From Hyphomicrobiales bacterium (GTDB lineage Bacteria > Pseudomonadota > Alphaproteobacteria > Rhizobiales > UBA4765): a stretch of DNA of 64,000 nucleotides. The stretch lies in NCBI GenBank assembly GCA_019748135.1, contig JAIEPZ010000005.1:23413-87412 (forward strand). Reading direction: 5' to 3'. Below the pieces are notes generated by a model. That model saw only the letters and a list, made by a program, of their open reading frames with translations. It was not told where the DNA came from and did not search any database. Position numbers and translations under genes: made by a program. Positions 3,630 through 57,284 of the stretch are shown piece after piece (position 1 is the stretch's first letter; each line of letters starts with the position of its first letter).

Positions 3630-3772
3630 CTTGGCTTTGCCTTTTTCTTGCGCAAAAGCTGCCGTGCGCATCGGCTTCATCTTTTAATCATCGCATTTAA
3701 GGTTAGGAACCATGGGGCGTCGGCTTCGTTTACCGCTATATCCTGCCGACGGCCCGTGCCAAGGACATACGG

Positions 3773-37808: not shown

Positions 37809-39038
37809 ATGCGCAAGACCGCCTACACGCTGTTTTTGGTTGTTGTCATCGGCGTGGGCCTTGGTCGGCATACGGCGCTGGCGGCTGGGCCGGCGGTTGA
37901 ATTTCTGGAGGAAGTATTTCGCCAGGAAGATGCCAGACGTAAACGACAACAGGAAAAACTTGCCCGCCCGGCGCACCCGCCCGTGGCGCGACCGGCGCGA
38001 CCGGTCGCTGACATTTCGGACGTGACCTATGCAGCGCCTGAACTGCCGAAAAACGCGGATGCGGCGACGATTCTCGTGGTTGGCGATGAGATGGCTGGAG
38101 GCCTCGCCGAAGGGCTGCGCCAGACCTACGCCGAAGACCGCAGCGTGAAGATTACGCCGCTCACGCGCCAAGGCGTCGGCATTATCAGCGGCGCGTCAGC
38201 CGATTGGGGCACGCTTGTCCGGGAGGCGATGGCGGAGAAAGCGCCAGCCGCCATCATCGTCATGTTCGGCTTCAATGACCGCCAGGCGCTCATCGACGGG
38301 GAGCGCATCGTTGAATTCCGCGATCCGCGCTGGCGGGATATCTACCAGGCCCGCATCGATCAGTTTCTGGGATATTTCGGGGCCCTTCGCACGCGCCTTT
38401 ACTGGACAGGCCTGCCTATCATGCGGGCGGCTCGTGATAGCGAGGATTCAAGTTTTTTTGGTGAAATATTCAAGAGCCGGATGTTCACCGCCAGCGCCCG
38501 TTTTGTCGATGTCTGGGAAGGCTTTGCTGACGATGAGGGGAAGTATGTGGCGATCGGGCCGGACATCAACGGCAACAAGCGTCGGCTGCGCAAATCGGAT
38601 GGCATAAATTTCACCCCTGCCGGCAATCGCAAGCTGGCGTTTTTTGTCGACAACACATTGAAGCGCGACGGCGCGGTGAGTGCCGCGCCTCTCATTGCCG
38701 GCCTTGAGCTGCCATCGCGACGTGATGAACAAGGAACGATCCGGCTGCCTGGCAGTGTGGCGCCAAGCGTGCCGGCAGCGCCCATTGCCGCGCTTGCGCC
38801 CAATTATGTGGGCGCGGTCGTGCAACTCACGCCGTTGCCCTTCAAGCCTGGCGCTGAACTGGCGACCTCCCCGGTCAACCGCGATGATTTCGCCTCACGT
38901 GTTCTCCAGCGTGGCGATCTTGCGCCCACGCATGTCGGGCGCGCGGATCATGCGCAATGGCCATCGCCTGCCGCGGTCGGCTCCCGTCCGCCGGTCGGCG
39001 ATGAAGAGCGCATGCTCGCCTTGCGCCCGACGCCTTAG
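37809..39038 (+). CDS. DUF459 / SGNH-hydrolase-fold protein (catalytic residues apparently substituted)
   Basis: SGNH-like blocks: LVVGDEMAGG (block I, Glu where Ser is expected), FGFND (block III), DGINFT (block V, Asn where His is expected). GGAGG Shine-Dalgarno before the ATG at 37809. Confidence 0.7.
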   Translation: MRKTAYTLFLVVVIGVGLGRHTALAAGPAVEFLEEVFRQEDARRKRQQEKLARPAHPPVARPARPVADISDVTYAAPELPKNADAATILVVGDEMAGGLAEGLRQTYAEDRSVKITPLTRQGVGIISGASADWGTLVREAMAEKAPAAIIVMFGFNDRQALIDGERIVEFRDPRWRDIYQARIDQFLGYFGALRTRLYWTGLPIMRAARDSEDSSFFGEIFKSRMFTASARFVDVWEGFADDEGKYVAIGPDINGNKRRLRKSDGINFTPAGNRKLAFFVDNTLKRDGAVSAAPLIAGLELPSRRDEQGTIRLPGSVAPSVPAAPIAALAPNYVGAVVQLTPLPFKPGAELATSPVNRDDFASRVLQRGDLAPTHVGRADHAQWPSPAAVGSRPPVGDEERMLALRPTP

Positions 39039-39085
39039 ACGCAAGCGCATTTCTCCGCCATGACCAATCCGTTTCTGGCACTGTC

Positions 39086-39874
39086 TTGGCCGACGATGAT
39101 GGCCCGAATGGCTGGATCGTGACAGACGCTCTTCTGCTGCAGGCGGCCATATTTACAGCCGCGACCGTGTCCGGCCTCACCGGCTTTGCGTTCGCGCTGG
39201 TGGCAGCGGGTATCGTCTTTCATCTGCGCTCTCCGGCTGATGCCACGGCGCTTATCCTCATGGGAAGCTTTCTCGCTCAGGTCATGTCGCTTTTGCGGCT
39301 GCGCCAAAGGGTCGCATGGGCCGATCTGTGGCCCTTTCTCGCCGCCGGCGTGATCGGCGCGCCGGTCGGAAGTCTGGCGCTCGGTCATCTTTATCCCGGT
39401 ACGGTGCGGCTGGGAATTGGTCTGTTCCTGTCGTTCTATGCCCTTTATGCGATGCGCCTGCCGGTCACTTACGTCTCGCCTCTGGCCGGTCGCCTGTCTG
39501 ACGCGATTGTGGGCTTTCTCAGCGGTGTGCTCGGCGGCATTGCCGGTCTGTCCGGGGCGCTCATGACGGCGTGGTGCTTGATGCGGGGCTGGGAGCCGGC
39601 GCGGCAAAGAGCTGTTTTTCAGAGCTTCATTCTCGTCATGCAAGCCTATTCGCTGATGTCGCTGGCGCTGGTGGTTGGTATCAGCCAGCACAGCCTGATT
39701 GATCTGGCAATCACCGGTCCGGTGATGATTGCCGGGGTTGTGATCGGCCTGTGGCTTTTTTCCAAAATCAATGGCGCGCGCTTTCGCTGGCTGGTATTGT
39801 GGCTGCTGCTGGTTCTTGGGGTTGTACTGACGATCAGCGAAATCTCGGCGATGTTGACATCGCATCCGGGTTAG
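39086..39874 (+). CDS. TauE/SafE-family anion (sulfite/organosulfonate) exporter-type membrane protein
   Basis: 262 aa with 7-8 hydrophobic helices and a family-typical internally duplicated architecture (TGFAFALV..., GGIAGLSGALM...). Confidence 0.75.
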   Translation: MADDDGPNGWIVTDALLLQAAIFTAATVSGLTGFAFALVAAGIVFHLRSPADATALILMGSFLAQVMSLLRLRQRVAWADLWPFLAAGVIGAPVGSLALGHLYPGTVRLGIGLFLSFYALYAMRLPVTYVSPLAGRLSDAIVGFLSGVLGGIAGLSGALMTAWCLMRGWEPARQRAVFQSFILVMQAYSLMSLALVVGISQHSLIDLAITGPVMIAGVVIGLWLFSKINGARFRWLVLWLLLVLGVVLTISEISAMLTSHPG

Positions 39875-39916
39875 GGATGCTCACCATTCGGATTGTTCAA
39901 AGGGACAAGCGACGGC

Positions 39917-40633
39917 ATGGCCGAGTTTCTGACAGTCGATATCTGGCGGGGCGGCGCGGAGGGTCAACTCCAGCGCTTCACCGTGCCGCGCAGCGACAAT
40001 CAGACGGTTCTCGATGTCGTTACCCATGTGCAGAAGGTGCTGGAGCCGAGCCTTGCCTATCGCTTTGCCTGCCGGGTCGGGATGTGCGGATCCTGCGCCA
40101 TGATGGTCAATGGCAAGGCGCGCTGGACGTGCCGCACGCATGTGAAGAAGGTGGCGGCTGATGGCCGGCTCATCCTTGAGCCTCTTGCCAATCTGCCGCG
40201 CATCCGCGATCTCGTGGCTGATCTTGCGCCCTTCTTCGACAAATGGCGGGCGGCCGGCGGCCAGTTCAGGCCGCAAGCTGGACTTGGCGATGATTTTGCG
40301 ATTGTGCCGCCGTCGGGCGCCGCGCGCCGCCAGGCTGATGAGGCGATCGAATGCATTGGCTGCGCTGTCTGCTATGCTTCCTGCGATGTGGTTGCGGGGC
40401 AGCCGGATTATCTTGGGCCGGCTGCGCTCAACCGCGCGTGGACGCTGATGAATGATGGGCGCGACGGGGCGCAGGAAGAGCGCCTGAAAGCTGTGAGTGG
40501 CGCGGGCGGTTGCCAGAATTGTCATACCCAGCAGGGGTGCCGGGACGCCTGCCCCAAGGGGCTCAATCCGACACGCTCGATTGCCGGGTTGAAGCGCATG
40601 AGCCTCAAGGCGCTCATCGAGGGGCGGTTGTGA
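39917..40633 (+). CDS. Succinate dehydrogenase/fumarate reductase-type iron-sulfur subunit
   Basis: Cys clusters CRVGMCGSC...C (2Fe-2S), CIGCAVCYASC, and CQNCHTQQGCRDACP. Confidence 0.88.
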   Translation: MAEFLTVDIWRGGAEGQLQRFTVPRSDNQTVLDVVTHVQKVLEPSLAYRFACRVGMCGSCAMMVNGKARWTCRTHVKKVAADGRLILEPLANLPRIRDLVADLAPFFDKWRAAGGQFRPQAGLGDDFAIVPPSGAARRQADEAIECIGCAVCYASCDVVAGQPDYLGPAALNRAWTLMNDGRDGAQEERLKAVSGAGGCQNCHTQQGCRDACPKGLNPTRSIAGLKRMSLKALIEGRL

Positions 40634-40968
40634 GCGGGCGCGGGGAGATGTGGCTCTTTCTGGCGCAGCGGGCAAGCGCGGTGGTGATGGCGCCGCTGGT
40701 GCTGATCCACCTCGCCGTCATCATCTACGCGGTGCGCTCCGGCTTGAGCGCGGAAGCGATTTTTGCACGCACGCGCGGCTCGGTGCTGTGGGCAGGGTTC
40801 TATGGCCTGTTCGTCGTGGCAGTCAGTGTTCATGCAGCCCTTGGGTGCCGGGCGATCAGTGCCGAATGGGCCGGCTGGCGCGGCAAACGCGTTGACGGGG
40901 TGTGGGCCGCCTTCGGCGCCCTCCTTCTGATCGCTGGTTTGCGCGCGGTTGCAGGGGTGATCTGGTGA
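40630..40968 (+). CDS. Small hydrophobic subunit, putative membrane anchor of the SDH/FRD-like complex
   Basis: About 107-112 aa with three hydrophobic helices. GTG at 40630 overlaps the Fe-S gene stop (GTGA). Alternative ATG at 40648. Confidence 0.55.
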   Translation: MSGRGEMWLFLAQRASAVVMAPLVLIHLAVIIYAVRSGLSAEAIFARTRGSVLWAGFYGLFVVAVSVHAALGCRAISAEWAGWRGKRVDGVWAAFGALLLIAGLRAVAGVIW

Positions 40969-40981
40969 GGGGAGCAATGCT

Positions 40982-41350
40982 TTGAGTGTGCAGCAGGCAG
41001 CCGGGCGTATCCGCAGCCGATCGCATGCGGGATATGTCGCTTATCTTGTTCACCGCCTTTCCGGACTGGCACTCGCTGTCTTTCTGCCATTTCACTTTTT
41101 TGTGCTGGGCAATGCGCTCAATGGCGCTGCTGGTCTTGACGATTTTCTGCTATGGGCAGCCAATCCATGGGTCAAGCTGGGCGAATGGCTGCTTGTAAGT
41201 GCGTTGGCGCTGCATATGGCCGGCGGGATCAGGGTGCTGGCTATTGAGTTTCTGCCGTGGAGTGAGCGACAAAAGACGTACACCATGCTTTGTATCGCCT
41301 TCGCGATTGCGGCGGGTCTGCTTTTTCTGCTGGCGGCACGACACGGGTAA
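40982..41350 (+). CDS. Small hydrophobic subunit, putative second membrane anchor (SdhC/FrdC-like)
   Basis: 122 aa with three hydrophobic helices and conserved-looking His residues (LPFHFFVLG, ALHMAGG). TTG start, or GTG at 40988. Confidence 0.55.
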   Translation: MSVQQAAGRIRSRSHAGYVAYLVHRLSGLALAVFLPFHFFVLGNALNGAAGLDDFLLWAANPWVKLGEWLLVSALALHMAGGIRVLAIEFLPWSERQKTYTMLCIAFAIAAGLLFLLAARHG

Positions 41351-41381
41351 AACAAACATCTACGGAAAATGGGAGAGACGC

Positions 41382-42395
41382 ATGACCAATCATCATTCGC
41401 GCCGGCAGGCTCTTGCCGGCATAGCCGCCAGCGCTCTGATGCTGCCAGGCGTCGTGCGCGCGCAGGCGCCAACGCAGGTGCGCATTGCCAAGCAATTCGG
41501 CATTTCCTACATCCCGATGGCGGTGATGGAGAAGCTAGGCCTCATCGAGGCGGAGTTGAAGGCCAATGGCGTGCCGACGTCCGACGTCCAGTGGGTGCAG
41601 TTCACCGGCGGCGCGCCGATCAATGATGCGCTGATTGCCGGCAGTCTTGAATTCGCCTCCGGCGGGATCGGGCCGATGATCACCATCTGGTCGCGCACCC
41701 GCAGCAATATCGATGTGCGTGGCGTGGCGGCGCTCAACTCGATGCCGCTTTATCTCAACACTATCAACCCGGCGGTGAAGACGGTGAAGGATTTCACCGA
41801 CAAGGACCGGATCGGACTGCCGGCGGTAAAAATCGCCATTCAAGCGCTCGTGTTACAAATGGCGGCTGAGCGTGAGCTGGGCAAATTCGATGCGCTTGAC
41901 CATCTGACGGTATCGATGAGCCACCCGGACGCCACAGCGGCACTGCTCTCGGGCAAGAGCGAGATCACGGCGCATTTCGGCTCGGCGCCCTTCCAATATG
42001 TCCAGTTGAAGGATCCGCGTGTTCATCGCGTCCTGAATTCCTTCGACGTGCTCGGTGGCCCGACCATCTTCAACGCGGTCTGGACGACGAAGAAAGTGCG
42101 GGAGGGCAGTCCGGTCGTCTACAAGAGTTTCCTGACAGCGCTTGAGAAGGCGATTGCGATGATCAACGCCGATCCGGTTGAAGCTGGCAAGATCTGGATT
42201 GCTGCGGAAAATTCGAAACTTGATCCAGGCTTCGTCACCGACATTCTGAAGGATCCTGAAAATGTCATGACAACAACGCCGCATCGCTCGATGGTGTTTG
42301 CCAATTTCATGAAGAAGACAGGTGCCATCAAGGATGCGCCGGCGCAGTGGAGCGATCTCTTCTTCCCCGAGCTTCATACCAAACAGGGAAGCTGA
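41382..42395 (+). CDS. ABC substrate-binding protein, NitT/TauT (SsuA/NMT1-like) family
   Basis: Tat/Sec-like signal (HHSRRQALAGIAASALMLPGVVRAQA). The QVRIAKQFGISYIPMAV block is typical of SsuA/TauA-type binding proteins. Confidence 0.8.
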   Translation: MTNHHSRRQALAGIAASALMLPGVVRAQAPTQVRIAKQFGISYIPMAVMEKLGLIEAELKANGVPTSDVQWVQFTGGAPINDALIAGSLEFASGGIGPMITIWSRTRSNIDVRGVAALNSMPLYLNTINPAVKTVKDFTDKDRIGLPAVKIAIQALVLQMAAERELGKFDALDHLTVSMSHPDATAALLSGKSEITAHFGSAPFQYVQLKDPRVHRVLNSFDVLGGPTIFNAVWTTKKVREGSPVVYKSFLTALEKAIAMINADPVEAGKIWIAAENSKLDPGFVTDILKDPENVMTTTPHRSMVFANFMKKTGAIKDAPAQWSDLFFPELHTKQGS

Positions 42396-42397
42396 TT

Positions 42398-43237
42398 GTG
42401 CACGGTCGGGTCGACGATAGCGCTCTGCCGCGCCCGCGCCTTGAGGTTGATGGGGTCACCTTGCAATATCGCACGCGCGATTACGCGGTGCGCGCCACGC
42501 AGCGCGTATCGTTTAACGTGCAGGGGGCTGATCGGTTCGTTCTGCTCGGGCCTTCGGGCTGCGGCAAGTCGAGCCTGCTGAAAGCGATTGCCGGGTTTCT
42601 GTCCCCGGTTGAAGGCGAGATCAGGCTTGATGGCCAGAAGGTCACCGAGCCTGGCCCCGACCGCATGATGGTGTTCCAGGAATTCGATCAGCTCCTGCCG
42701 TGGAAGACGGTTGAACAGAACGTGCTTTTTCCCATGGAACGCACCGGCAAATATAGCGGCAAGGATGCGCGCGAGCGGGCGCGCCGCTTCCTCGACAAGG
42801 TGAAGCTCAGCAAATTTGCCCATGTCTATCCGCATCAGCTTTCAGGCGGCATGAAGCAGCGAGTAGCGATTGCGCGCGCGCTCGCGCTCGAGCCGCGCGT
42901 CCTGCTGATGGACGAGCCCTTCGCAGCGCTCGACGCATTGACGCGGCGCGAGATGCAACAGGAATTGCTGCAATTATGGGATGAGGCGCGCTTTACGGTG
43001 GTGTTTGTCACCCACTCGATCCACGAGGCGATCGTGGTTGGCAATCGTATCCTCGTTCTCTCGCCCCATCCGGGGCGGGTGAAGGCGGAACTCAATTCGG
43101 GTGATTTCGGCGAAGGCGCCGAGGCCGGCATGGCGATCCAGGCGCTCGACACCCGCATCAACGCCATGTTGTTTGGCGAAGCAGCCGGTGCCTCGACGGG
43201 GCAATCTCAGGCAGGAGGCGTCCTTGGCGGTCACTGA
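42398..43237 (+). CDS. ABC ATP-binding protein, NitT/TauT (SsuB/TauB-like) family
   Basis: Walker A GPSGCGKSS, LSGGMKQRVAIARAL, LLMDEPFAALD. GTG start 2 nt after the binding-protein stop. Confidence 0.88.
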   Translation: MHGRVDDSALPRPRLEVDGVTLQYRTRDYAVRATQRVSFNVQGADRFVLLGPSGCGKSSLLKAIAGFLSPVEGEIRLDGQKVTEPGPDRMMVFQEFDQLLPWKTVEQNVLFPMERTGKYSGKDARERARRFLDKVKLSKFAHVYPHQLSGGMKQRVAIARALALEPRVLLMDEPFAALDALTRREMQQELLQLWDEARFTVVFVTHSIHEAIVVGNRILVLSPHPGRVKAELNSGDFGEGAEAGMAIQALDTRINAMLFGEAAGASTGQSQAGGVLGGH

Positions 43238-43247
43238 TACCGGACGC

Positions 43248-44111
43248 ATGGTGCCGCCGCAGCGGCCTGAGATCGTCCACGCTGAAATCGCGGCCGGTGA
43301 TCAGAAGCTGGTTGAAACTCCGCTCGGTTTTTTTGAGCGCATCGCCGCATCAGAAGGTCTGCGCAAACTGTTCATCGTCGCCATGCTGGGGCTTGTCTGG
43401 GAAATCTACGGGCGCCTTCTCGGCAATGACCTTATTTTTCCAACTCTTGGCCAGACGCTTGTAGCGTGGGTGGATGCGGCCGTTTCGGGCACGCTGATCA
43501 ACCGCACGCTGACATCGCTGCGCGTTCTCGGTATCGCCTATGTCATCGGCGTCGTGCTGGCGACGGGGTTGACCATTGTTGCGGTGTCATCGCGCCTTGG
43601 CACTGATCTGCTGTCGACGCTGACCTCGATGTTCAATCCGCTGCCGGCGATCGCGCTTCTGCCGCTGGCGCTGCTGTGGTTTGGCATCGGCATCACGTCG
43701 ATTGTCTTTGTCGTCATTCATTCGGTGCTGTGGGCGGTGGCGCTCAATATGCATACCGGCTTTCTCTCGGTTGCGGAAACACTGCGCATGAGCGGGCGCA
43801 ATGTCGGGCTGAAGGGCCTGCCCTATGTTGTCTACATTCTCATCCCCGCTGCCTTCCCGGCGATCCTTGCCGGCCTCAAGATCGGCTGGGCCTTCGCGTG
43901 GCGGACCTTGATTGCGGCCGAGCTGGTGTTTGGTGTCTCCTCGCGCTCGGGCGGGCTTGGCTGGTTCATTTTTGAAAACCGCAATCAGTTGCAGACCGCC
44001 CATGTCTTTGCCGGACTTCTCACGGTGATCCTGATCGGGCTTGCGGTGGAGAGCGGTATCTTCCGCCTGATAGAGCGTCATACGGTCGCCAGATGGGGCA
44101 TGCAGAGATGA
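43248..44111 (+). CDS. ABC permease, NitT/TauT (SsuC/TauC-like) family
   Basis: Polytopic. The GWAFAWRTLIAAE EAA-loop-like block is typical of SsuC/TauC. Confidence 0.85.
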   Translation: MVPPQRPEIVHAEIAAGDQKLVETPLGFFERIAASEGLRKLFIVAMLGLVWEIYGRLLGNDLIFPTLGQTLVAWVDAAVSGTLINRTLTSLRVLGIAYVIGVVLATGLTIVAVSSRLGTDLLSTLTSMFNPLPAIALLPLALLWFGIGITSIVFVVIHSVLWAVALNMHTGFLSVAETLRMSGRNVGLKGLPYVVYILIPAAFPAILAGLKIGWAFAWRTLIAAELVFGVSSRSGGLGWFIFENRNQLQTAHVFAGLLTVILIGLAVESGIFRLIERHTVARWGMQR

Positions 44112-44989
44112 GTTTCGCGATCGCCCCGGAGGCTATTGAGGACGTTGCCAAGCTTCTCTACATCCGGGCGCTGAAAATCCTGCCAAGCGACATCAAGCAG
44201 GGTTTCGTGCGGTTGAGTGCGGCGGAGACGGACGAGACGGCCCAATCGATTCTGGCAACGATGATCGAGAACATCGCGGTTGCCGAAAAGACCGACAACA
44301 TCCTGTGCCAGGATACCGGCATCCCGATCTACAATGTCGACATCGGGCGCGGCGTCGCGCTCGATGGCTATCTGTTGAAACAGGCGATCCGGCGCGGCGT
44401 CGAGCGGGCGACAAAAGAACATCCGCTGCGCTCTTCCGTCGTCCATCCGCTGACGCGGGTCAACGAGCAGACATCGTGCGGGGCGCATGTGCCGGTGATC
44501 AACATCGATTTTATCGATGAAGCGGAAACGCTGAGAATTGAAATGATCCCCAAGGGCTCGGGCTCGGAGAATGGCTCGTTTCTCAAGATGCTGATCCCGG
44601 CTGACGGCATCGACGGCATCAAGACCTTCGTCATCGACCGGGTGATGGAAGTCGGCGGTCGCGTTTGCCCGCCGACCATCGTGGGCGTTGGTATCGGTGG
44701 CACATCGGATTTGTGCATGCATCTGGCGAAAATGGCGGCGACCCGCCCGCTCGGCACCATGTGCAAGGATCCCGAAGGGGCCAAGCTCGAAAATTTACTG
44801 TCACAAGCTGTCAATATGCTCGATATCGGGCCGCAAGGTCTGGGTGGTTTTGGCACGGCTTTCGCCGTTCATGTCGAGGCGGCGGCCACGCACATCACCA
44901 TGAATCCGGTGGCGGTGAACATCCAGTGCCATTCAGCGAGGCGGGCGAGCGCGGTATTCACCCGCACCGGCGTGGCGATCGGGGAATAG
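44108..44989 (+). CDS. Fe-S hydro-lyase alpha subunit (class I fumarate hydratase / L-tartrate dehydratase TtdA type)
   Basis: 293 aa. CQDTGIPIY cluster-ligand motif, GSGSENGS, VGVGIGGTSD. ATGA overlap with the permease stop. Confidence 0.88.
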   Translation: MSFAIAPEAIEDVAKLLYIRALKILPSDIKQGFVRLSAAETDETAQSILATMIENIAVAEKTDNILCQDTGIPIYNVDIGRGVALDGYLLKQAIRRGVERATKEHPLRSSVVHPLTRVNEQTSCGAHVPVINIDFIDEAETLRIEMIPKGSGSENGSFLKMLIPADGIDGIKTFVIDRVMEVGGRVCPPTIVGVGIGGTSDLCMHLAKMAATRPLGTMCKDPEGAKLENLLSQAVNMLDIGPQGLGGFGTAFAVHVEAAATHITMNPVAVNIQCHSARRASAVFTRTGVAIGE

Positions 44990-45601
44990 ATGGCGGATTA
45001 TCAATTCATCACGCCGGTCAGTGCGGCAGACGTCCGTCAGCTTCGCCTCGGCGACCGGGTGACGCTCAGCGGCGCGCTTTACGGCGTACGTGATGCCAAT
45101 CTGATCGCCATGTTCGACAAGGGACGGAAGACCAAGTTTGATCTCGAAGGAGCGGCTGTCGTCCACACCGCCCCCAATGTGCGTAAAGTGCCGGTGTCAA
45201 ATGAGCACCCCGCCGGCTACGCGGCGATCAATGTCGGCACGACGACAAGCCAGCGCATGGAGCGTTTCACCCGCCCGCTGATGGAGCGCGAGGGGGTTCG
45301 GATCATCATCGGCAAGGGCGGTATGGGCGATGAGACGCTAAAGGCTTTCAGCGAATTTGTCGGCGTTTATCTGGCGATTGTCGGCGGGGCAGCAGCGCTG
45401 CAGACGACGTGGATTGAGAGCATTGATGATGTCGATATGGACGATCTCAACCCTGAATCGATCTGGCGCTTCAGCGTCAGGAATTTCGGCCCCTTGCTGG
45501 TGACGATGGATTCGCATGGCGCCTCGTCGTTTGATGCTGTGAGGGCGCGGGCCGATGCCAGGCGGGCGGCAGCACTCAACTATCTCGGTGTCAAGAGTTG
45601 A
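44990..45601 (+). CDS. Fe-S hydro-lyase beta subunit (TtdB / FumA C-terminal domain type)
   Basis: 203 aa. LSGALYGVRDANL..., IIGKGGMGD. The start abuts the alpha stop (TAG-ATG). Confidence 0.88.
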   Translation: MADYQFITPVSAADVRQLRLGDRVTLSGALYGVRDANLIAMFDKGRKTKFDLEGAAVVHTAPNVRKVPVSNEHPAGYAAINVGTTTSQRMERFTRPLMEREGVRIIIGKGGMGDETLKAFSEFVGVYLAIVGGAAALQTTWIESIDDVDMDDLNPESIWRFSVRNFGPLLVTMDSHGASSFDAVRARADARRAAALNYLGVKS

Positions 45602-47313
45602 GAACGCTTGACACCGATATTCTGGTTCTGGGATCGGGTGGCGCCGGGCTTTTCGGCGTTCTGCATGCATTGGAAGCTGACCCTGATCTTCACGTGACGA
45701 TTGCCGTCAAGGGATTACTTGGTAAGAGCGGCTGCACGCGCATGGTCCAGGGCGGCTACAATGTCGTGCTGTCGCCAGGCGATTCCATCGAACGCCACTT
45801 CATGGACACGATTGAGGGCGGCAAATGGCTTAACGTCCAGGAGCTGGCGTGGAAGCTGGTGTCGGAAGCGCCGATACGCATCCGCGAACTCGAAAACAAA
45901 TATGGTTGTTTCTTTGACCGCAATCCCGATGGCAGCGTGCATCAGAAGGCCTTCGCCGGCCAGACTTTCGACCGCACTGTCCACAAGGGCGATCTGACGG
46001 GGATCGAGATTGTCAGCCGGCTGGCGGAACAGGTCTGGGGAAAAAGCGCCGTACGGCTTGAGGAGCACCGAGCGCTTGCCCTGATACCGGCAAGCGACCG
46101 GACCGGACTTGCCGGCGTGCTGATGGTCGATATGCGCGATGGCGCCTACGTCCTGGTGCGGGCAAAGGCGACGCTGCTTGCCACCGGCGGCGGGCCCACC
46201 ATGTATCGCTACCACACGCCATCGGGTGACAAATCCTGCGACGGCATGGCGATGGCGCTGCGGGCCGGGCTGAGCCTGCGCGATATGGAGATGGTGCAGT
46301 TCCACCCGACCGGGCTTCTCGCCGGCCCGGGTACGCGCATGACGGGCACGGTGCTGGAAGAAGGACTTCGCGGGGCAGGCGGCTATCTTCTCGACGGCAA
46401 TGGCAAGCGCTTCATGTTCGATTATGACGAGCGGGGCGAGCGGGCAACGCGCGATGTGGTGTCACGCGCGGTCGACGACGTTATCCGCGCGGGCCGCGCT
46501 TCCCCGCTTGGCGGGGTTTTCATCGAGATGAAACATCTGGGGCCGGAGAATGTCCGCCGTCAGTTCAAGGGCATGGTGGAGCGCTGCGCCGATTGCGGCT
46601 TTGATCTGGCTGCAGGGCGTGTTGAAGTGGTGCCGACCGCGCATTACATGATGGGCGGCGTGGAGTTTGCCGGAGATTGCTCGACCGCGCTGCCCGGCCT
46701 GTTCGTCGCTGGCGAAGATACGGGCGGGGTTCACGGCGCCAACCGGCTGGGTGGTAACGGGGTTGCCAATTCCACGGTTTTCGGTGGTATCGCAGGCGGG
46801 GCGATGGCGGCCTTCGTGCGCCGCGCCGGACGGCTTTGCGATGAAGATGCGCACGCCGTCGCGGCGGCGATTGCAAGCGCCGAACAGCCGTTCGGCCGGC
46901 CGGCCGGTCAAGTTGAAGAGGTGCGCGAGCGACTTCATCAGGTGATGTGGGATGAGGTCGGCATCATCCGCGATCGCTCGCGCCTGATGGCAGCGCAGGG
47001 CTCCCTGCACGAACTTGCCGCGCATATCGATGCCATGGGCGTTGGCGGCGGCCGGTCCTTCAATCTCACCTGGCATGACTGGCTCAATCTCAAGAACCTC
47101 ATTCTGGTGAGCCAGTCGATTGCCGTTGCGGCGTTGGCGCGGGAGGATTCGCGCGGCGCCCATTACCGCGCCGATCATCCAACCGCCAGCGATCTCATGG
47201 CCTCGACCTATACCCAGGTGCGATTGGAAAAGGATGAGCTGCGTGTGGCCGCGCGGGCGGTTGATTTTACCCATGTGAGACCAGGTGAAAGCCTGCTGCA
47301 GGCGGCGGAATAA
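45598..47313 (+). CDS. Succinate dehydrogenase/fumarate reductase-type flavoprotein subunit (non-canonical FAD-attachment site)
   Basis: 571 aa. VLGSGGAGL dinucleotide fold, QFHPTG, EEGLRGAGG, HYMMGG, NRLGGN. TTG start overlaps the beta stop (TTGA). SGCTRMVQGG stands where RSHTxAAQGG is expected. Confidence 0.9.
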   Translation: MRTLDTDILVLGSGGAGLFGVLHALEADPDLHVTIAVKGLLGKSGCTRMVQGGYNVVLSPGDSIERHFMDTIEGGKWLNVQELAWKLVSEAPIRIRELENKYGCFFDRNPDGSVHQKAFAGQTFDRTVHKGDLTGIEIVSRLAEQVWGKSAVRLEEHRALALIPASDRTGLAGVLMVDMRDGAYVLVRAKATLLATGGGPTMYRYHTPSGDKSCDGMAMALRAGLSLRDMEMVQFHPTGLLAGPGTRMTGTVLEEGLRGAGGYLLDGNGKRFMFDYDERGERATRDVVSRAVDDVIRAGRASPLGGVFIEMKHLGPENVRRQFKGMVERCADCGFDLAAGRVEVVPTAHYMMGGVEFAGDCSTALPGLFVAGEDTGGVHGANRLGGNGVANSTVFGGIAGGAMAAFVRRAGRLCDEDAHAVAAAIASAEQPFGRPAGQVEEVRERLHQVMWDEVGIIRDRSRLMAAQGSLHELAAHIDAMGVGGGRSFNLTWHDWLNLKNLILVSQSIAVAALAREDSRGAHYRADHPTASDLMASTYTQVRLEKDELRVAARAVDFTHVRPGESLLQAAE

Positions 47314-47333: not shown

Positions 47334-48377
47334 TTAAGGGGCGCCAAAGCCGTAGCGCCTCAACTCCTCGCCATTGACGAGGCTGCGCAGTTTCCCCCGT
47401 GACAGGCGGTCGGCGACCGCGCGCGCTGATAGCCGACGCATGTCGTCAAGGCTCTGCGGCGTATAGAACGCGGCATGCGGCGTAATCGTCAGGCGCCCCT
47501 CGAGCCAGTGCTCGCGCGCCGTCCACGCCTTGATCAGCGGATGCGAGCGCTCCAGCGGTTCGACCGGCAGTACGTCAAGACCGGCAGCAGCGATACGGTC
47601 CGAGCGTAAGCCCGCTTCCAGCGCATCAAGATCGATGATTGGTCCGCGCGCCGTGTTGATGAGCACGGCGTCCGGTTTCATGGTGGCAACCGCCGCGTGA
47701 TCGATCAGGTTCGTCGTTGCGGTGGTGAGCGGACAATGAAGCGAGACGATATCGCTCGCCGCCAGCAGGCCGTGGAGCGTGTCGTGGCGAAGCAACCCCA
47801 GCGACAATTCAACACCCGGCGGCAGATGAGGGTCGTAAAAGGCGACATCAAGCGAAAAGGCGCGCGCGCGTTGTGCTGCGGCGATGCCGATACGGCCAAG
47901 CCCGACAACCCCAAAGGTGAGGTCGCGCAGGCGGCGAACAGGCCGCATCTCCAGCTGATCGGTCGACCACGCATCATCGCGGGTCAAAAGCCGCGCATTA
48001 TAGGTGCTGATGCCACGGAACAGATTGAGCGTCAGCGCCAGCGCATGGTCGGCAACTTCCATGGTGCCATAATCGGGCGTGTTGCAGACCGCAAGGCCTC
48101 GCCGGGCGCAGGCGTCGATGTCGATATGATTGTAACCAACGCCTGCCTGCACGAGAAGCTGCGCTTTCGTCATGGCGTGCACTTCACGCTCGCCGATCTT
48201 GTGGCGACCGCGGAAATTGATGATCGCATCAGCGCGTGCCAGGGTCGCAGTCGGTACCTGATGGGACGCATTGAGCGACACCAGTTCGATATCGAAACCG
48301 GCGCCGAGTTCAGCCGCCTCAAGATCGGGCAGACGCATCGGTGGCGGATCGAGAATGAGCACCAGCGGCATCGGCAT
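47334..48377 (-). CDS. D-isomer-specific 2-hydroxyacid dehydrogenase family protein
   Basis: NAD motif GVVGLGRIGIAAA, NTARGP, TPHAAF catalytic His block. Start taken at MPMPLVLIL (48377). Confidence 0.85.
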   Translation of the reverse strand: MPMPLVLILDPPPMRLPDLEAAELGAGFDIELVSLNASHQVPTATLARADAIINFRGRHKIGEREVHAMTKAQLLVQAGVGYNHIDIDACARRGLAVCNTPDYGTMEVADHALALTLNLFRGISTYNARLLTRDDAWSTDQLEMRPVRRLRDLTFGVVGLGRIGIAAAQRARAFSLDVAFYDPHLPPGVELSLGLLRHDTLHGLLAASDIVSLHCPLTTATTNLIDHAAVATMKPDAVLINTARGPIIDLDALEAGLRSDRIAAAGLDVLPVEPLERSHPLIKAWTAREHWLEGRLTITPHAAFYTPQSLDDMRRLSARAVADRLSRGKLRSLVNGEELRRYGFGAP

Positions 48378-48471
48378 GTCCTTGGTTGGGGCAGGATGGC
48401 TCTGTTGCAAAACCCCGCATTGACACCGCAGTTGTTGCGCGCGACCACAAACACGGCAAGTGGGAGTTGAG

Positions 48472-50139
48472 ATGGCGATGAACAAAAAAGTCAACACGCC
48501 GCGCCTGATGAGCGGTGGTGAAGCGATTGTCGATAGCCTCAAGGCCAACGGGGTTGACACCGTATTCGGCCTTCCCGGTGTCCAGATGTATCCGCTGTTT
48601 GACGCACTGCATCAGGCGTCCAACACCATTCAGACCATCGGTGCGCGTCATGAGCAGGCCTGTGCCTACATGGCTTTCGGCTATGCGCGCTCGACGGGAC
48701 GGCCCGGTGTCTTTTCAGTCGTGCCTGGGCCTGGCGTCCTCAATGCTTCGGCGGCAATCGCGACGGCCCTTGGCGCCAGCGCGCCCGTTCTGTGTCTGAC
48801 AGGACAGATACCGTCCGATTTCATCGGGCGCGGGCGCGGCCATCTCCATGAATTGCCGGATCAGCTGGCGACCATTCGATCCTTTACCAAGGCAGCAGCG
48901 CGGATTGAGCGCGGCGCCGAAGCGCCGCGCCAGGTCAACTGGGCGTTTCGCCAACTCTGCGAGGGGCGCCCGGGGCCGGTATCGCTGGAGATGGCGTGGG
49001 ATGTGATGGCGCGCACGGAACGCGTTCAAGGGCTTGGCGCTGCCGGGATCGAAGCCGCCTTGGCTCCCGACCCCGATCAGATTGCCAACGCCGCCAGGTT
49101 GATTGCGAGCGCCAAACGGCCGATCATATTTCTTGGCAGCGGCGCCCAGCATGCGAGCGAGGCGATCACGGCGCTCGCTGAAGCCATCGACGCGCCGGTT
49201 GCGGCATTCCGCAGCGGGCGCGGCATCGTTGCCGAAGACCATCCGCTTGGTGTGTCGAGCTATCAGGCAAAGCTCCTGTGGGAAAAAAGCGATCTGGTGA
49301 TCGGCATCGGAACGCGGCTCGAAATGCCGCTGATGCGCTGGCAGGGGATGAGTGGCCTTGTCGATCGCTTTGACCGCTTGATGATCCGCATCGATATCGA
49401 TCCGGTCGAGATGGTGCGGGTGAAGGCGGATGTGGGCATTGTCGCTGATTCTGCGCACGGCGCGCGGGCGCTCTATGAGGCGGTCACGCGGCTGCCATTG
49501 TCGAAGGCAGGTGATGCGACAGAACGCGTGGCAGCGGCGCGTGCGCAGGCTGCCAGGGATATCGCTGAGATCGAACCGCAGATGTCCTATCTCAAGCTCA
49601 TCCGCGACGTCATGCCGCGCGATGGAATTCTGGTGGAGGAGCTGTGCCAAACGGGATTTACGTCCTATTTCGGATATCCCGTTCTGGCACCGCGCTCCTA
49701 TATCTCCTCAGGTTTTTCCGGAACGCTCGGTTACGGCTTCCAGACGGCGCTCGGCGTCAAGATCGGCAATCCCCGCAAGGCCGTGGTGTCGATCACGGGC
49801 GATGGCGGCTTCATGTTTGGCGTCCAGGAGCTTGCGACCGCCGTCCATCACGGCATCGGGCTCGTCACCATCGTCTTCAACAACGCAAGCTACGGCAATG
49901 TGCGGCGTGATCAGCAGGAGCGTTATGGCGGGCGGGTGCTGGGGTCTGATCTCACCAATCCCGATTTCGTCAAGCTTGGCGAAGCGTTTGGCGTCATGGC
50001 ACGCCGCGTCACAACGCCGGCAGAGCTGAAAGGTGTTCTTGAGGCAGCGCTTGGCGCTGATCGCCCGGCCCTCATCGAAGTGGTTCTCAAGCCGGACAGC
50101 GAAACCTCGCCGTGGAAATTCATCCATTTCGCGAAGTAG
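48472..50139 (+). CDS. Thiamine-pyrophosphate-dependent enzyme, acetolactate-synthase-like
   Basis: GGEAIVDSLKANGVDTVFGLPG N-terminus. TPP motif GDGGFMF...NNASYGNV. GGAG Shine-Dalgarno before the ATG at 48472 (an in-frame GTG lies at 48460). Confidence 0.85.
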   Translation: MAMNKKVNTPRLMSGGEAIVDSLKANGVDTVFGLPGVQMYPLFDALHQASNTIQTIGARHEQACAYMAFGYARSTGRPGVFSVVPGPGVLNASAAIATALGASAPVLCLTGQIPSDFIGRGRGHLHELPDQLATIRSFTKAAARIERGAEAPRQVNWAFRQLCEGRPGPVSLEMAWDVMARTERVQGLGAAGIEAALAPDPDQIANAARLIASAKRPIIFLGSGAQHASEAITALAEAIDAPVAAFRSGRGIVAEDHPLGVSSYQAKLLWEKSDLVIGIGTRLEMPLMRWQGMSGLVDRFDRLMIRIDIDPVEMVRVKADVGIVADSAHGARALYEAVTRLPLSKAGDATERVAAARAQAARDIAEIEPQMSYLKLIRDVMPRDGILVEELCQTGFTSYFGYPVLAPRSYISSGFSGTLGYGFQTALGVKIGNPRKAVVSITGDGGFMFGVQELATAVHHGIGLVTIVFNNASYGNVRRDQQERYGGRVLGSDLTNPDFVKLGEAFGVMARRVTTPAELKGVLEAALGADRPALIEVVLKPDSETSPWKFIHFAK

Positions 50140-50256
50140 ATCATTATGTCACGACATAGCTTGCGTGTCGCATAAACAGGTGGGTTTCGTCACGTGGAAG
50201 TGAATCGTCTGCTGGATGCTCGATGGTAGGTTAGATGCCTGCAAGCGGAGAACGCC

Positions 50257-51018
50257 ATGATTTCCAGTCGTCACCTATTGTCGTCATCTCTCGTGTTCTG
50301 CCTCATGTTGTTCATGACCGGCTTTGCCTCGCCGGCTTTTGCCCAGCCGGTCACGCTCACAGCCAAGGACGGGGTGAAGGTATTCGGCACCTATTACGGC
50401 ACAGGCGACAAGTCGAAACCGGTTGTCCTGTTGTTCCATATGGCCGGCTCCAACGCGGCCGAGTACGCGCCGACCGCTCCGCGTCTGGTGGCACTTGGAT
50501 ATAACGCGCTGGCGATTGATCAGCGCTCAGGCGGATTTGCCTTTGGCGCTGGCAATCAAACGGTGAAGGAACTCGGGCGCAGTGCCGGCTTCCTGCAGGC
50601 CTTGCCTGATCTTGAGGCGGCGCTTGCCTGGGTCGCCAGCAGCGGGCATGGCGGCAAGGTGATCATTGTCGGCTCCAGCTATTCGGCCTCGCTGGTGTTT
50701 TTGCTGGCTGCGCAGAACCCGGGCAAGGTTGCCGGGCTGGCTGCCTTTTCGCCGGGCGAATATTTCGGCGCGGGCGCAAGCGTCAAGGGTGCAGCCCAAA
50801 AGCTGCAGGGCGTCCAGGTCTTTGTGTCCTCAGCCAGTGATTCCGGTGAGGTTGCGGAAGCGCGCTCCATCCTTGAAGCCGTACCGGGAAGTGCCAAGAC
50901 GCAGCTTGCGGCCAAGCGGGCTCCGCATGGCGCGTCCTCCCTGCGTCAGGATGCGAATGGTGGCGGACAGGCCGAGGTGTGGGAAGGTTTCACCCGCTTC
51001 CTTGCCTCGGTGCGCTAG
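50257..51018 (+). CDS. Secreted alpha/beta-hydrolase-fold protein
   Basis: Signal peptide ([20 protein letters not shown]). Nucleophile-elbow-like [11 protein letters not shown]. Confidence 0.6.
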
Positions 51019-51038
51019 ATCGTTCTACTCATCCGTCC

Positions 51039-52154
51039 ATGATCGCCCGGACGGATACGGACGTCGTCATTATCGGGGCAGGGGTCGTCGGGCTCGCGGT
51101 TGCGCGCGCGCTTGCCCTGGCTGGCCGCGACGTGATCGTGCTGGAAGCCGAAGATCACATCGGCGAGCATCAATCCTCACGCAATAGCGAGGTGATCCAT
51201 GCCGGGCTTTATTACACCCCGGGCAGCCTGAAGGCACGTGCCTGTGTCGCGGGCAAAGAGCGGCTCTACGCCTATTGCGCACAGCACGGTATCGCCCATC
51301 GGCGTATCGGCAAATTCATTGTCGCGGCAAATGCTGAACAAGTGACACGTCTTGAAGCCATCTGCGCCAATGCGCGGGCCTGTGGCGTTGATGATCTGGT
51401 GATGATCGATGGGCCGGAAGTGCGCCGCTGCGAGCCGGCGCTCACCGCTCATGCGGCGCTCATATCGCCGTCGACAGGCATTATCGACAGTCACGCCTAC
51501 ATGCTGGCGCTCCAGGGTGAAGCGGAAGCACATGGGGCGAGCGTCGTGTTCAAAGCTCCTTTTGAGCGTGCCGTTGTCGAAACAGGGCGGGTGCGCCTGT
51601 GGACCGGCGGCGTCGAGCCGTTCGAGATGACCTGTCGGCTCCTCGTCAACTGCGCGGGGATGGCCGCGCCCGCCTTGGCGCGACGTATCGACGCGTATCC
51701 TCCAACGCGCATTCCGCAGGAAAGTCTGGCCAAGGGAAATTATTTCACGCTTGCTGGTCGCTCGCCCTTCTCAAGGCTTATCTATCCCATCCCGGAACCG
51801 GGCGGACTCGGGGTCCATCTGACGCTTGATCTGGGCGGGCAGGCGCGTTTTGGCCCCGATGTCGAATGGATCGAGACGATGGATTATGCCGTCGATGCGC
51901 GGCGTGGCGAGCGCTTCTATGCCGCAATCCGTCGCTATTGGCCGGGTCTCAAGGATGGTGCGCTGGCGCCTGCCTATGCCGGCATCCGGGCCAAGATCGG
52001 CCCGCGCGACCAGACACAGGATTTTATCATCGACGGCCCGGACGACCATGGCTGTCCAGGCGTCCTGTCGCTGTTTGGCATTGAAAGCCCGGGCCTGACC
52101 TCATCGCTTGCGCTTGCTGGCATGGTGGCTGACAAAGCGGTCCGTTCAGCCTGA
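51039..52154 (+). CDS. FAD-dependent oxidoreductase, L-2-hydroxyglutarate oxidase (LhgO/YgaF)-like
   Basis: [15 protein letters not shown] Rossmann motif. [21 protein letters not shown] block closely resembles LhgO. Confidence 0.8.
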
Positions 52155-56645: not shown

Positions 56646-56714
56646 GGGGGACTTCCCTTTGGGCCGCGAACCTGTCAGTAGAAACGCCACATTGCAAGGC
56701 TAAGGAATAAAGAC

Positions 56715-57284
56715 GTGGTCAAAGTCATCGCCAGTTCGGTCCGCAAGGGCAATATCCTCGATCTCGACGGCAGGCTCTGTGTCGTCATGTCGGCTGAAAG
56801 CTTTTTTCCCGGCAAAGGCACGCCTACGACGCAGATTGATATGCGCCGCATCAGTGATGGGGTAAAGGTCTCGGAGCGCTACAAGACGACCGAACAGGTC
56901 GAGCGTGCTTTTGTCGAGGATTTTGACTACAGCTATCTTTATCTGGACGGTGACAATTACGTCTTCATGAACCCTGAAAACTATGAACAATTGCCGGTAT
57001 CATCGGACGTGCTGGGCGATCAGGCGGTTTATCTCCAGGAAGGTATGGTGTGCAAGCTGTCGATCTTCGAGGGCAATGCGGTTGCCATCGAAATTCCCGC
57101 CCGGGTGACACTTGAAATTTCGGAAACGGAACCGACGATGAAGGGGCAGACGGCGTCGTCGAGCTACAAGCCGGCGATCATGTCGAATGGTGTGCGCGTC
57201 ATGGTTCCGCCGCATATTTCGGCAGGCACCCGCATCGTGGTGTCGACGGCCGACAACACCTATGTCGAACGGGCCAAGGATTGA
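56715..57284 (+). CDS. efp: Translation elongation factor P
   Basis: 189 aa. GTG start with AAGGAA Shine-Dalgarno. Modification loop FFPGKGTP with Lys at the tip. C-terminal YVERAKD. Confidence 0.95.

Follow-up and report, generated by a model that had tools for sequence, protein, structure and literature searches.

Organization of the locus

A set of genes for a complex II-like dehydrogenase, interleaved with transporter and hydro-lyase genes, occupies positions 39086-47313 of a 64,000-nucleotide (nt) stretch of DNA from a Hyphomicrobiales bacterium (assembly GCA_019748135.1, contig JAIEPZ010000005.1, 23,413-87,412 of the forward strand), referred to here as the window. Pfam and NCBIfam profile searches of the window proteins bore out the identities of ten plus-strand genes, where a first-pass annotation had spoken of eleven proteins. 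The first encodes a TauE/SafE-family anion exporter of 262 amino acids (aa) (39086-39874; PF01925), and is followed by an SdhB-like iron-sulfur (Fe-S) subunit of the complex II type (39917-40633, 238 aa; Fer2_3 and Fer4), a first, SdhD-like membrane anchor with a GTG start (40630-40968, 112 aa; PF01127, Sdh_cyt, 38.5 bits), and a second anchor resembling SdhC/cytochrome b556 (40982-41350, 122 aa; PF01127, and TIGR02970 at 56.4 bits with a cut-off of 52.3). Three ATP-binding cassette (ABC) transporter genes come next, for a periplasmic binding protein of the NitT/TauT family (41382-42395, 337 aa; NMT1, 26 bits), an ATPase (42398-43237, 279 aa; ABC_tran) and a permease (43224-44111, 295 aa when read from TTG 43224, with an alternative ATG at 43248; BPD_transp_1). 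The unit ends with the alpha and beta subunits of an Fe-S hydro-lyase of the class I fumarase type (44108-44989, 293 aa, Fumerase PF05681 at 293 bits; 44990-45601, 203 aa, Fumerase_C PF05683 at 113 bits) and an SdhA/FrdA-family flavoprotein with a TTG start (45598-47313, 571 aa; FAD_binding_2 and Succ_DH_flav_C).

Successive intergenic distances are 42, -4, 13, 31, 2, 10 (or -14), -4, 0 and -4 nt, and the junctions can be read directly as GTGA at 40630 (a 4-nt overlap), ATGA at 44108, TAG-ATG at 44989/44990 and TTGA at 45598. The gene order and tight junctions given in the first-pass annotation were correct at every coordinate checked, including the placement of TauE 42 nt upstream of the Fe-S gene on the same strand, and the junctions support its view of a single, tightly coupled unit. 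The permease most likely starts at TTG 43224, which has AGGAGG 5 nt upstream and produces a 14-nt overlap with the ATPase gene; the same overlap geometry and permease length are found in the gene calls of two relatives (L090 and L091). Scanning the unit for promoters and terminators gave no informative signal, with 14 terminator-like sites found against 10.8 +/- 3.5 in shuffled sequence, all 14 within coding sequence and none in an intergenic gap of the unit. No regulator gene adjoins the unit in the window; its relatives usually carry a divergent LysR gene or a GntR gene. Three long antisense open reading frames (ORFs) of 264-276 aa (39035-39865, 39881-40675 and 46462-47274, all on the minus strand) are without family support, as expected of shadow ORFs at 61% G+C.

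Conservation and distribution of the module

A genome scan, with one genome taken per species, returned at least 600 matches, of which the best 80 loci were drawn on. In 48 loci having at least 8 kb on both sides, with genes labelled by reference-based tblastn, the core SdhB-anchor-anchor-[transporter]-FumA-FumB-flavoprotein was present in 47. A lack of conserved synteny had been named beforehand as grounds for refuting the first-pass proposal; synteny proved to be strongly conserved, so the proposal withstands that test, and with the core recurring in loci from other species the gene arrangement is not due to chance.

Homologues of the flavoprotein with at least 70% identity are abundant in alpha-, beta- and gammaproteobacteria. 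The best 80 loci include Methylobacterium, Xanthobacteraceae, Polynucleobacter, Paraburkholderia, Curvibacter, Massilia, Afifella, Nisaea and many metagenome-assembled genomes, and plasmid records carrying the module come from Cupriavidus necator N-1, Paracoccus, Sulfitobacter, Pseudomonas sp. MPC6, Rhodococcus jostii RHA1 and two haloarchaea. In close relatives (83-94% identity) the unit has the same chromosomal setting, between galU-like and elongation factor P (EF-P) genes.

A complex II-like dehydrogenase with an altered flavin site

The flavoprotein scores under every curated NCBIfam cut-off for SdhA, FrdA, NadB and TfrA; its best model is TfrA (504 bits, cut-off 718), and sdhA_frdA_Gneg gives 400 bits (cut-off 567). 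For the Fe-S subunit, the broad TIGR00384 model is the only one passed (180 bits, cut-off 88), the best equivalog being missed at 185 against 228. With every SdhA, FrdA and SdhB equivalog cut-off missed, the complex is not a housekeeping succinate dehydrogenase (SDH). Across 69 loci, the Fe-S subunit shows invariant Cys motifs for three clusters; two His in anchor 1 are likewise invariant, as are, in anchor 2, an R..SG motif, two His and a G.R motif, corresponding to the R..SG and H...G.R of SdhC-type proteins. The anchors thus fit a quinone-reactive, possibly dihaem membrane domain.

Alignment of the flavoprotein to E. coli FrdA and M. smegmatis Sdh2 revealed which parts of the active site have changed. 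The QFHPTG, RG.GG, HYMMGG and NRLGGN blocks, from which a dicarboxylate site had initially been read, are retained, but two other residues are replaced. Cys46, within an invariant GCTRMVQGG, stands where FrdA His44 and SdhA His45 form the 8-alpha-N3-histidyl link to flavin adenine dinucleotide (FAD), and Glu254, in an invariant EEG motif, stands at the carboxylate-binding loop Thr (FrdA Thr244, SdhA Thr254). Both changes occur in all 121 homologues of at least 70% identity, and also in Rhodococcus and haloarchaeal members at 48-53% identity. The loop ahead of Glu254, which includes Arg247, is 6 residues longer than in FrdA and contains a conserved Arg/Lys (TRMTG). His236, Glu255, Arg258, Arg285, His349 and Arg383, equivalent to FrdA His232, Glu245, Arg248, Arg287, His355 and Arg390, are all retained, so that one carboxylate site (the His349/Arg383 pair) and the proton-relay Arg are intact while the other site is altered by the Thr to Glu254 replacement. 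By these alignments the flavoprotein defines a distinct subfamily, in which the two replacements are invariant from proteobacteria to haloarchaea, and it is proposed to be the catalytic subunit of a 3-sulfopropionate dehydrogenase, for reasons given below.

The module resembles complex II, as exemplified by E. coli SdhCDAB and FrdABCD, in having a flavoprotein, a three-cluster Fe-S subunit and two small His-bearing anchors, and the best solved relative of its flavoprotein is the SdhA of M. smegmatis Sdh2 (PDB 7D6V; 312 bits). It differs in the Cys and Glu that replace the FAD-linking His and active-site Thr, in the transporter and hydro-lyase genes that come between the Fe-S and flavoprotein genes, and in a context of sulfonate catabolism rather than the tricarboxylic acid cycle. 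The tricarballylate dehydrogenase TcuAB and the thiol:fumarate reductase TfrAB are comparable cases in which FrdA-family flavoproteins were recruited to non-succinate substrates or non-quinone partners; however, their partner proteins TcuB and TfrB are unlike those of the module, and both systems lack anchors of the SdhC/D type as well as a coupled hydro-lyase.

The Fe-S hydro-lyase

The alpha subunit passes the fumarate hydratase model NF004885 (304 bits, cut-off 276), and retains the three cluster Cys (in CQDTG, CPP and QCHS) as well as a KGSGSEN motif. The beta subunit misses all NCBIfam equivalog cut-offs (NF004708, 134 against 269), TIGR00723 only narrowly at 143.1 against 145.15; its RD, TTT, QRM and GKGG motifs align with those of the M. 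jannaschii and Leishmania fumarases in alignments to 7XKY, 5DNI and 5L2R. A TtdAB-like enzyme had been suggested initially. The two-subunit Fe-S hydro-lyase part of that description stands, whereas the tartrate dehydratase models are widely missed (TtdA, 187 bits against 365 for alpha; TtdB, 145.5 against 264 for beta).

Since all fumarase catalytic and binding motifs are kept, sequence alone cannot separate fumarate from a close analogue such as sulfoacrylate, and sulfoacrylate hydratase is the function proposed for the enzyme. Two-subunit class I fumarases, of which M. jannaschii fumarate hydratase (7XKY) is the best solved relative, have the three cluster Cys and these motifs in common with it. 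What sets the module apart from class I fumarase, TtdAB and mesaconase is the translational coupling of the hydro-lyase genes to a complex II flavoprotein gene, and, from class I fumarase, the proposed substrate, which would be sulfoacrylate instead of fumarate.

Transporter genes and TauE

Assignment of the exporter is firm at the family level (PF01925, 85.4 bits against a gathering score of 32.6), and TauE lies within the core in 14 related loci and less than 400 bp away in 5 more. The importer had been described as Ssu-type, which holds at the level of the NitT/TauT family and no further, as all three ABC parts fall far under the Ssu and Tau cut-offs: the binding protein matches SsuA_fam at 60 bits (cut-off 163.5), the ATPase is best matched by TauB at 219 bits (cut-off 357), and the permease scores 93 bits with SaoP, 78 with SsuC (cut-off 347) and 76 with TauC (cut-off 342), in each case under the cut-off. 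By these scores the ABC genes are members of the wider NitT/TauT family only, and not SsuABC or TauABC. What lies between anchor 2 and the hydro-lyase varies among the loci: a NitT/TauT ABC system, a TctC-type binding protein, TauE, or no gene at all.

Sulfonate genes around the module

Among the 48 loci, SuyA- and SuyB-like genes occur in 32, an Ldh_2 gene in 37, a 2-hydroxyacid dehydrogenase resembling phosphoglycerate dehydrogenase in 21, TauE in 33, a particular thiamine-diphosphate (TPP) enzyme in about 22 and a GntR regulator in 27. UxaA-family proteins split into a small and a large subunit are encoded by the SuyA- and SuyB-like genes, and the SuyB-like product bears the Joint Genome Institute name (2R)-sulfolactate sulfo-lyase subunit beta; in six loci its gene precedes the Fe-S gene by 6-207 nt in the same orientation. 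Within its superfamily, only SuyAB is heteromeric (PMC6336799). Of the models matched by the Ldh_2 proteins, that for L-sulfolactate dehydrogenase scores highest or nearly so, yet under its cut-off. YeiH/SuyZ-like genes, annotated as putative sulfate exporters, and sulfite dehydrogenase genes are also found near the module in relatives. The link to sulfonates made in the first-pass annotation is therefore borne out by SuyAB-like, ComC/SlcC-like, TauE, SuyZ/YeiH-like and sulfite dehydrogenase genes beside or inside the module in most relatives.

SlcC/ComC together with SuyAB convert sulfolactate to pyruvate and sulfite by an established route (PMC12421959). The known SuyAB-SlcC-ComC cluster with a tripartite tricarboxylate transporter and GntR (Chromohalobacter salexigens, Paracoccus) has no SDH-like or fumarase-like genes; in most type I relatives (defined below) the same set occurs within the module or next to it, and would consume (2R)-sulfolactate, the proposed product of the module. 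The combination of 2-hydroxyacid dehydrogenase, Ldh_2, SuyAB, TctC and GntR makes up the sulfolactate cluster of Chromohalobacter salexigens.

The TPP enzyme family that recurs beside type I modules is 54-70% identical among about 26 loci (e.g., L001 12862-15260), and its best models are acetolactate synthase and 2-hydroxyacyl-CoA lyase, both under cut-off. TauE often directly follows this gene, with a 4-nt overlap in L001, an adjacency which suggests that the TPP enzyme itself would release sulfite.

A large C3-sulfonate island on the Paracoccus versutus plasmid pTAV3 (652-682 kb; L086 and L094) holds a type II module along with TauE, LysR, Ldh, 2-hydroxyacid dehydrogenase, TctCBA, GntR, a second ABC system, SuyAB and a SuyZ-like exporter, as well as alcohol dehydrogenase-, short-chain dehydrogenase- and HisD-like genes resembling hpsNOP. 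A second sdhC/sdhD pair and a CBS-domain gene lie about 9 kb upstream. In Paracoccus, a protein cluster for "fumarate and tartrate metabolism" and a TauE homologue are induced during growth on sulfosugar (PMC12421959). These names match the automatic annotation of the Paracoccus module. Cluster 3 of that study is a probable homologue of the module; a cluster look-up of the P. versutus module proteins did not return the P. wurundjeri accessions.

Several other neighbors were considered and set aside. An acyl-CoA dehydrogenase/CoA-transferase/hydratase trio is seen in only 4 of the 48 loci. A protein in L003 is not an orthologue of 3-sulfinopropanoyl-CoA desulfinase (199 bits against 600), and on the Sulfitobacter sp. 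THAF37 plasmid, which carries a type II module, the true desulfinase (L087 24478-25650; 635 bits, cut-off 600) is located about 11 kb from the module behind unrelated genes, among them TonB/ExbBD, with an aspartate aminotransferase-like gene and the recurrent TPP enzyme upstream.

Module variants with different hydro-lyases

When the genome loci were pooled with those of a metagenome scan that used the Pseudomonas MPC6 protein as seed, 98 loci were of type I and 42 of type II. Type I, to which the window belongs, has FumA-FumB ahead of the flavoprotein; in type II the flavoprotein directly follows the anchors and precedes the hydro-lyase. Methylobacterium radiotolerans JCM 2831 and Cupriavidus necator N-1 carry type I modules along with SuyAB. 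The dehydrogenase is orthologous in both types, the window Fe-S subunit being 58-62% identical to type I and 55-62% to type II proteins and the flavoprotein 67-72% and 61-68%, respectively, with no fixed differences between the types at consensus positions of the flavoprotein. The hydro-lyase is not: alpha is 68-82% identical to type I and 32-37% to type II subunits, and beta 61-65% and 26-35%. Type II alpha keeps the three Cys and lacks the KGSGSEN motif.

The neighbors differ as well. For loci whose core is flanked by 4 kb or more on either side, and with Fisher p values uncorrected for locus relatedness, a SuyB-like gene is present in 25 of 37 type I and 0 of 15 type II loci (p 5e-6), Ldh_2 in 29/37 and 1/15 (p 2e-6), and GntR in 25/37 and 1/15 (p 1e-4); the TPP enzyme is beside type I in 18 of the 37. 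Conversely, a CoA-acylating (methyl)malonate-semialdehyde dehydrogenase (MmsA; TIGR01722, 695 bits against a cut-off of 448) is found in 5 of the 42 type II loci and 0 of the 98 type I loci, directly abutting the hydro-lyase in L089 and L096 and nearby in L120, L140 and L164. In the Pseudomonas sp. MPC6 plasmid the MmsA gene is at L089 13409-14899, and the locus further encodes TctCBA, TauE, an OprD porin, NIPSNAP, a YeiH-type exporter, and a sulfite oxidase with cytochrome c, with no SuyAB; it looks like a self-contained plasmid pathway.

On the two haloarchaeal plasmids the flavoprotein and Fe-S subunit are present with neither anchors nor a class I hydro-lyase. A lyase annotated as ArgH (L088 8290-9792; L092 8362-9864), which gives 260 bits on the XcbC model, lies in divergent orientation to the gene pair for the flavoprotein and Fe-S subunit, with SuyAB-like genes and TauE alongside, and the Haloarcula locus additionally has an Ldh_2 gene. 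XcbC forms sulfoacrylate in bacterial coenzyme M synthesis (PMC9457059). Sulfoacrylate is a real metabolite handled by lyases of the fumarase (aspartase/fumarase) superfamily, as XcbC and XcbD exemplify (PMC9457059). Theirs is, however, a biosynthetic pathway with class II-type lyases and no dehydrogenase step, while the window has a class I Fe-S hydro-lyase. The pairing of a fixed dehydrogenase with three interchangeable lyases fits a common enoate as the dehydrogenase product, and the link of type II to malonate-semialdehyde dehydrogenase argues for a C3 skeleton.

A proposed route for 3-sulfopropionate

The unit is proposed to be a catabolic module for 3-sulfopropionate, a sulfonate isostere of succinate, in which the succinate-fumarate-malate steps of the Krebs cycle would be mimicked; it is the most likely of the readings considered, and we judge its chances of being right to be about even. 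The NitT/TauT ABC system would import 3-sulfopropionate, and the complex II-like enzyme, acting in the oxidative direction, would take two hydrogens from it to give 3-sulfoacrylate and pass the electrons to quinone. The two-subunit Fe-S hydro-lyase would then hydrate 3-sulfoacrylate in fumarase style to (2R)-3-sulfolactate, the 2R configuration being expected from a Cahn-Ingold-Prelog priority argument if water adds as in the formation of L-malate. Sulfolactate would subsequently be desulfonated, either by SuyAB, yielding pyruvate and sulfite, or by a ComC-like dehydrogenase and the TPP enzyme, and TauE may export the resulting sulfite. These desulfonation enzyme sets are encoded beside the module in most relatives; neither set is in the window, and the desulfonation step probably lies outside the window operon. 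The logic of import, membrane-linked dehydrogenation and hydration put forward in the first-pass annotation thus holds, with a different substrate preferred.

Precedent for these intermediates exists. 3-Sulfopropionate is produced from sulfoquinovose-derived 2,3-dihydroxypropane-1-sulfonate by gut and other anaerobes, and from homotaurine. Cupriavidus necator H16 excretes it, and Roseovarius nubinhibens ISM and Paracoccus pantotrophus NKNCYSA reportedly use homotaurine as a carbon source. In an aerobic Roseobacter 3-sulfopropionate is degraded via sulfoacrylate and sulfolactate according to a thesis on Roseovarius nubinhibens, as cited in PMC11489063. The thesis route, from homotaurine through 3-sulfopropionate and sulfoacrylate to sulfolactate, has the same intermediates in the same order as proposed for the module, but in that citation it comes with no genes or enzymes (PMC11489063). 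Apart from the thesis note, recent papers describe the degradation of 3-sulfopropionate as unknown (PMC11489063; PMC12890257), and a 2026 review still calls the mechanism unclear. In the literature searched, no paper assigned genes to this route or described such a system, nothing relevant was found on "sulfopropionate dehydrogenase", and, in agreement with the first-pass annotation, there was no characterized system of this architecture. The module is a combination of known enzyme kinds that is undescribed in the literature searched and very widespread.

The preference for 3-sulfopropionate over sulfosuccinate, the substrate originally favored, has two grounds: dehydrogenation and hydration of the former would give (2R)-3-sulfolactate, a substrate of the co-encoded SuyAB and ComC, and the type II module is linked to MmsA, which acts on a C3 product. 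Several observations weigh against it. Glu in place of Thr244 would be an unusual residue for binding a sulfonate, and loss of the FAD-linking His usually accompanies reductase or low-potential chemistry. E. coli FrdA His44 mutants reportedly lose succinate oxidation. With this His lost, it is not certain that the complex can oxidize a succinate-like C-C bond; the enzyme may rely on a cysteinyl link, on tuning by the protein, or on a lower-potential substrate such as sulfolactate. By tblastn there is no SuyAB or Ldh_2 gene in the 64-kb window, and the 2-hydroxyacid dehydrogenase and TPP genes found there are not orthologues of the recurrent ones. No feeder genes for homotaurine or 3-hydroxypropanesulfonate recur beside the module in the 48 loci, nor is there a recurrent aminotransferase or aldehyde dehydrogenase for homotaurine among the unlabelled neighbors, and the locus counts are not phylogenetically independent. 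3-Sulfopropionate is not known at an abundance that would account for so wide a distribution. Finally, the probably homologous Paracoccus cluster is induced on sulfofucose (PMC12421959), where 3-sulfopropionate is not expected. It is Glu254, the lost histidyl-FAD and the Paracoccus induction without an obvious 3-sulfopropionate source that keep our confidence in 3-sulfopropionate at an even level.

Alternative substrates and products

The place at which water is added decides the first of the alternatives, in which substrate and dehydrogenase are as proposed above and the window hydro-lyase hydrates the sulfonated carbon, so that 3-hydroxy-3-sulfopropanoate would collapse spontaneously to malonate semialdehyde and sulfite. 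The ten genes would then be a self-contained desulfonation unit with TauE exporting the released sulfite, in keeping with TauE at the head of the operon and within the core in 14 loci, with the lack of SuyAB and Ldh_2 in the window, and with type II loci, where MmsA directly follows the hydro-lyase in two cases and a SuyB-like gene is found in 0 of 15. However, the window enzyme is the type I paralogue, 68-82% identical to those associated with SuyAB/ComC and 32-37% to those of the MmsA-linked type II, and MmsA occurs in none of the 98 type I loci. The fumarase residues that position the carboxylate and hydroxyl at the cluster are moreover all kept, which favors OH addition next to the carboxylate, and this outcome is considered improbable for the window. 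A spontaneous loss of sulfite of this kind had been part of the first-pass proposal; the context of the window subtype does not support it, and it may still apply to type II. A broader possibility, that a complex II without histidyl-FAD has been recruited to an organosulfonate and that its partner hydro-lyases set the fate of sulfoacrylate, type I leading to sulfolactate and type II (possibly also type I) to malonate semialdehyde and sulfite, is regarded as rather unlikely though credible. The hydro-lyase could in that case act in an aconitase-like manner and shuttle sulfolactate into the same exit, and the type II route, if real, would be an oxygen-independent, radical-free desulfonation. Sulfosuccinate, as the source of a sulfofumarate that is hydrated either to oxaloacetate and sulfite directly or, via sulfomalate, toward sulfopyruvate or sulfolactate, is compatible with the sulfonate context and with an enzyme family that normally acts on C4 dicarboxylates; the dicarboxylate-binding His and Arg are retained, and TctC-type binding proteins, typically for di- or tricarboxylates, fill the transporter slot in many loci. 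Extra steps would nevertheless be needed to reach the SuyAB substrate, the MmsA link of type II indicates a C3 product and not oxaloacetate, and one of the two carboxylate sites is altered from Thr to Glu in every member. No paper on sulfosuccinate desulfonation, sulfofumarate or sulfomalate was found in the literature searched, and no natural source is known that would explain a range from soil proteobacteria to haloarchaea, so that sulfosuccinate appears quite improbable.

The missing FAD-linking His would suit a low-potential hydroxy-acid couple, and the complex might accordingly be read as a quinone-linked sulfolactate dehydrogenase forming enol-sulfopyruvate, in the way that SDH slowly oxidizes malate, with sulfopyruvate passing to the TPP enzyme and the Fe-S protein serving as an enol-keto tautomerase or a sulfolactate/sulfoacrylate isomerase. 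Class I fumarase does have oxaloacetate tautomerase activity, the TPP enzyme lies beside type I in 18 of 37 loci with TauE often directly after it, sulfolactate is far more abundant in nature than 3-sulfopropionate, and a probable Paracoccus homologue is induced where sulfolactate is an intermediate. Such an enzyme would be redundant with the NAD(P)-linked SlcC/ComC-like dehydrogenases of the same loci, though; it leaves unexplained the haloarchaeal ArgH/XcbC-type lyase, from a family acting on C=C enoates, and cannot supply malonate semialdehyde for the type II MmsA. We give it little likelihood. Less probable still is an ordinary, non-sulfonated dicarboxylate (tartrate, methylsuccinate/mesaconate or D-malate), with the neighbors being generic anion permeases and UxaA-type dehydratases. 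Automatic annotation does name the module parts fumarate reductase and L(+)-tartrate dehydratase, TauE and NitT/TauT are family-level assignments, and the SuyAB/ComC assignments rest on annotation and sub-threshold model scores. Against this stand the wide misses of the TtdA (187 against 365) and TtdB (145 against 264) models and the recurrence of five independent gene kinds (split SuyAB-like, Ldh_2, TauE, SuyZ/YeiH and sulfite dehydrogenase). The P. versutus module sits within an island that holds hpsNOP-like genes and SuyAB-SuyZ, and the sulfonate link holds in archaea too. The tartrate and methylsuccinate alternatives named in the first-pass annotation are accordingly disfavored by the sulfonate context.

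The module is a concrete, very widespread genetic candidate for an aerobic route that has been missing, and if 3-sulfopropionate is indeed the substrate it would fill a gap in the organosulfur cycle. Complex II would then, in a rare instance, have gained a new substrate along with an altered flavin attachment site, a point relevant to the old problem of why covalent FAD is required for succinate oxidation. The exchange of hydratases around a fixed dehydrogenase can further be viewed as a natural experiment on how the final C-S bond is broken.

Other genes in the window and insertions in related loci

Two genes downstream of the flavoprotein are of uncertain membership in the unit. A D-2-hydroxyacid dehydrogenase-family gene (47334-48560, minus strand) has family-level NCBIfam matches only, and its real start is probably later, the protein being 345 aa in relatives; a PRK08266-family TPP enzyme (48460-50139, plus strand) matches NF006122 at 782 bits (cut-off 571). 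They are followed by a DLH/Hydrolase_4-type hydrolase (50257-51018) and an FAD enzyme similar to L-2-hydroxyglutarate oxidase (50979-52154). This four-gene block (47334-52154) is kept in relatives at 83-94% identity, and only in such close relatives do the 2-hydroxyacid dehydrogenase and TPP genes adjoin the module. Orthology to the recurrent genes was rejected for both, the dehydrogenase being 32-37% identical to the cluster-associated, SlcC-like genes and the TPP enzyme 26-31% identical to its recurrent counterpart. It is speculation that the two might functionally replace ComC and the recurrent TPP enzyme.

Farther along, the window contains EF-P (56715-57284), EpmA (55584-56690) and an EpmB/lysine-2,3-aminomutase-like radical SAM gene (54520-55623), together a complete EF-P beta-lysylation set in a seemingly alphaproteobacterial chromosome.

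Additional genes are inserted in or near the core of some relatives. Large and small subunits of the aconitase-X type, which score under the cis-3-hydroxy-L-proline dehydratase cut-off, are in or next to the core in L005, L062 and L083. They separate the anchors from TauE in L005 and L083, and precede TauE in L062, where anchor genes were not detected. The coordinates given for the L005 insertions are 2535-4207 and 8571-9380, and in the same locus a metallo-beta-lactamase-fold gene separates FumA from FumB. An enolase-superfamily gene is ahead of FumA in L003, and a nitroreductase-family gene, 44-46% identical across loci, is directly upstream of the module or its transporter in L032, L050, L085 and L087.

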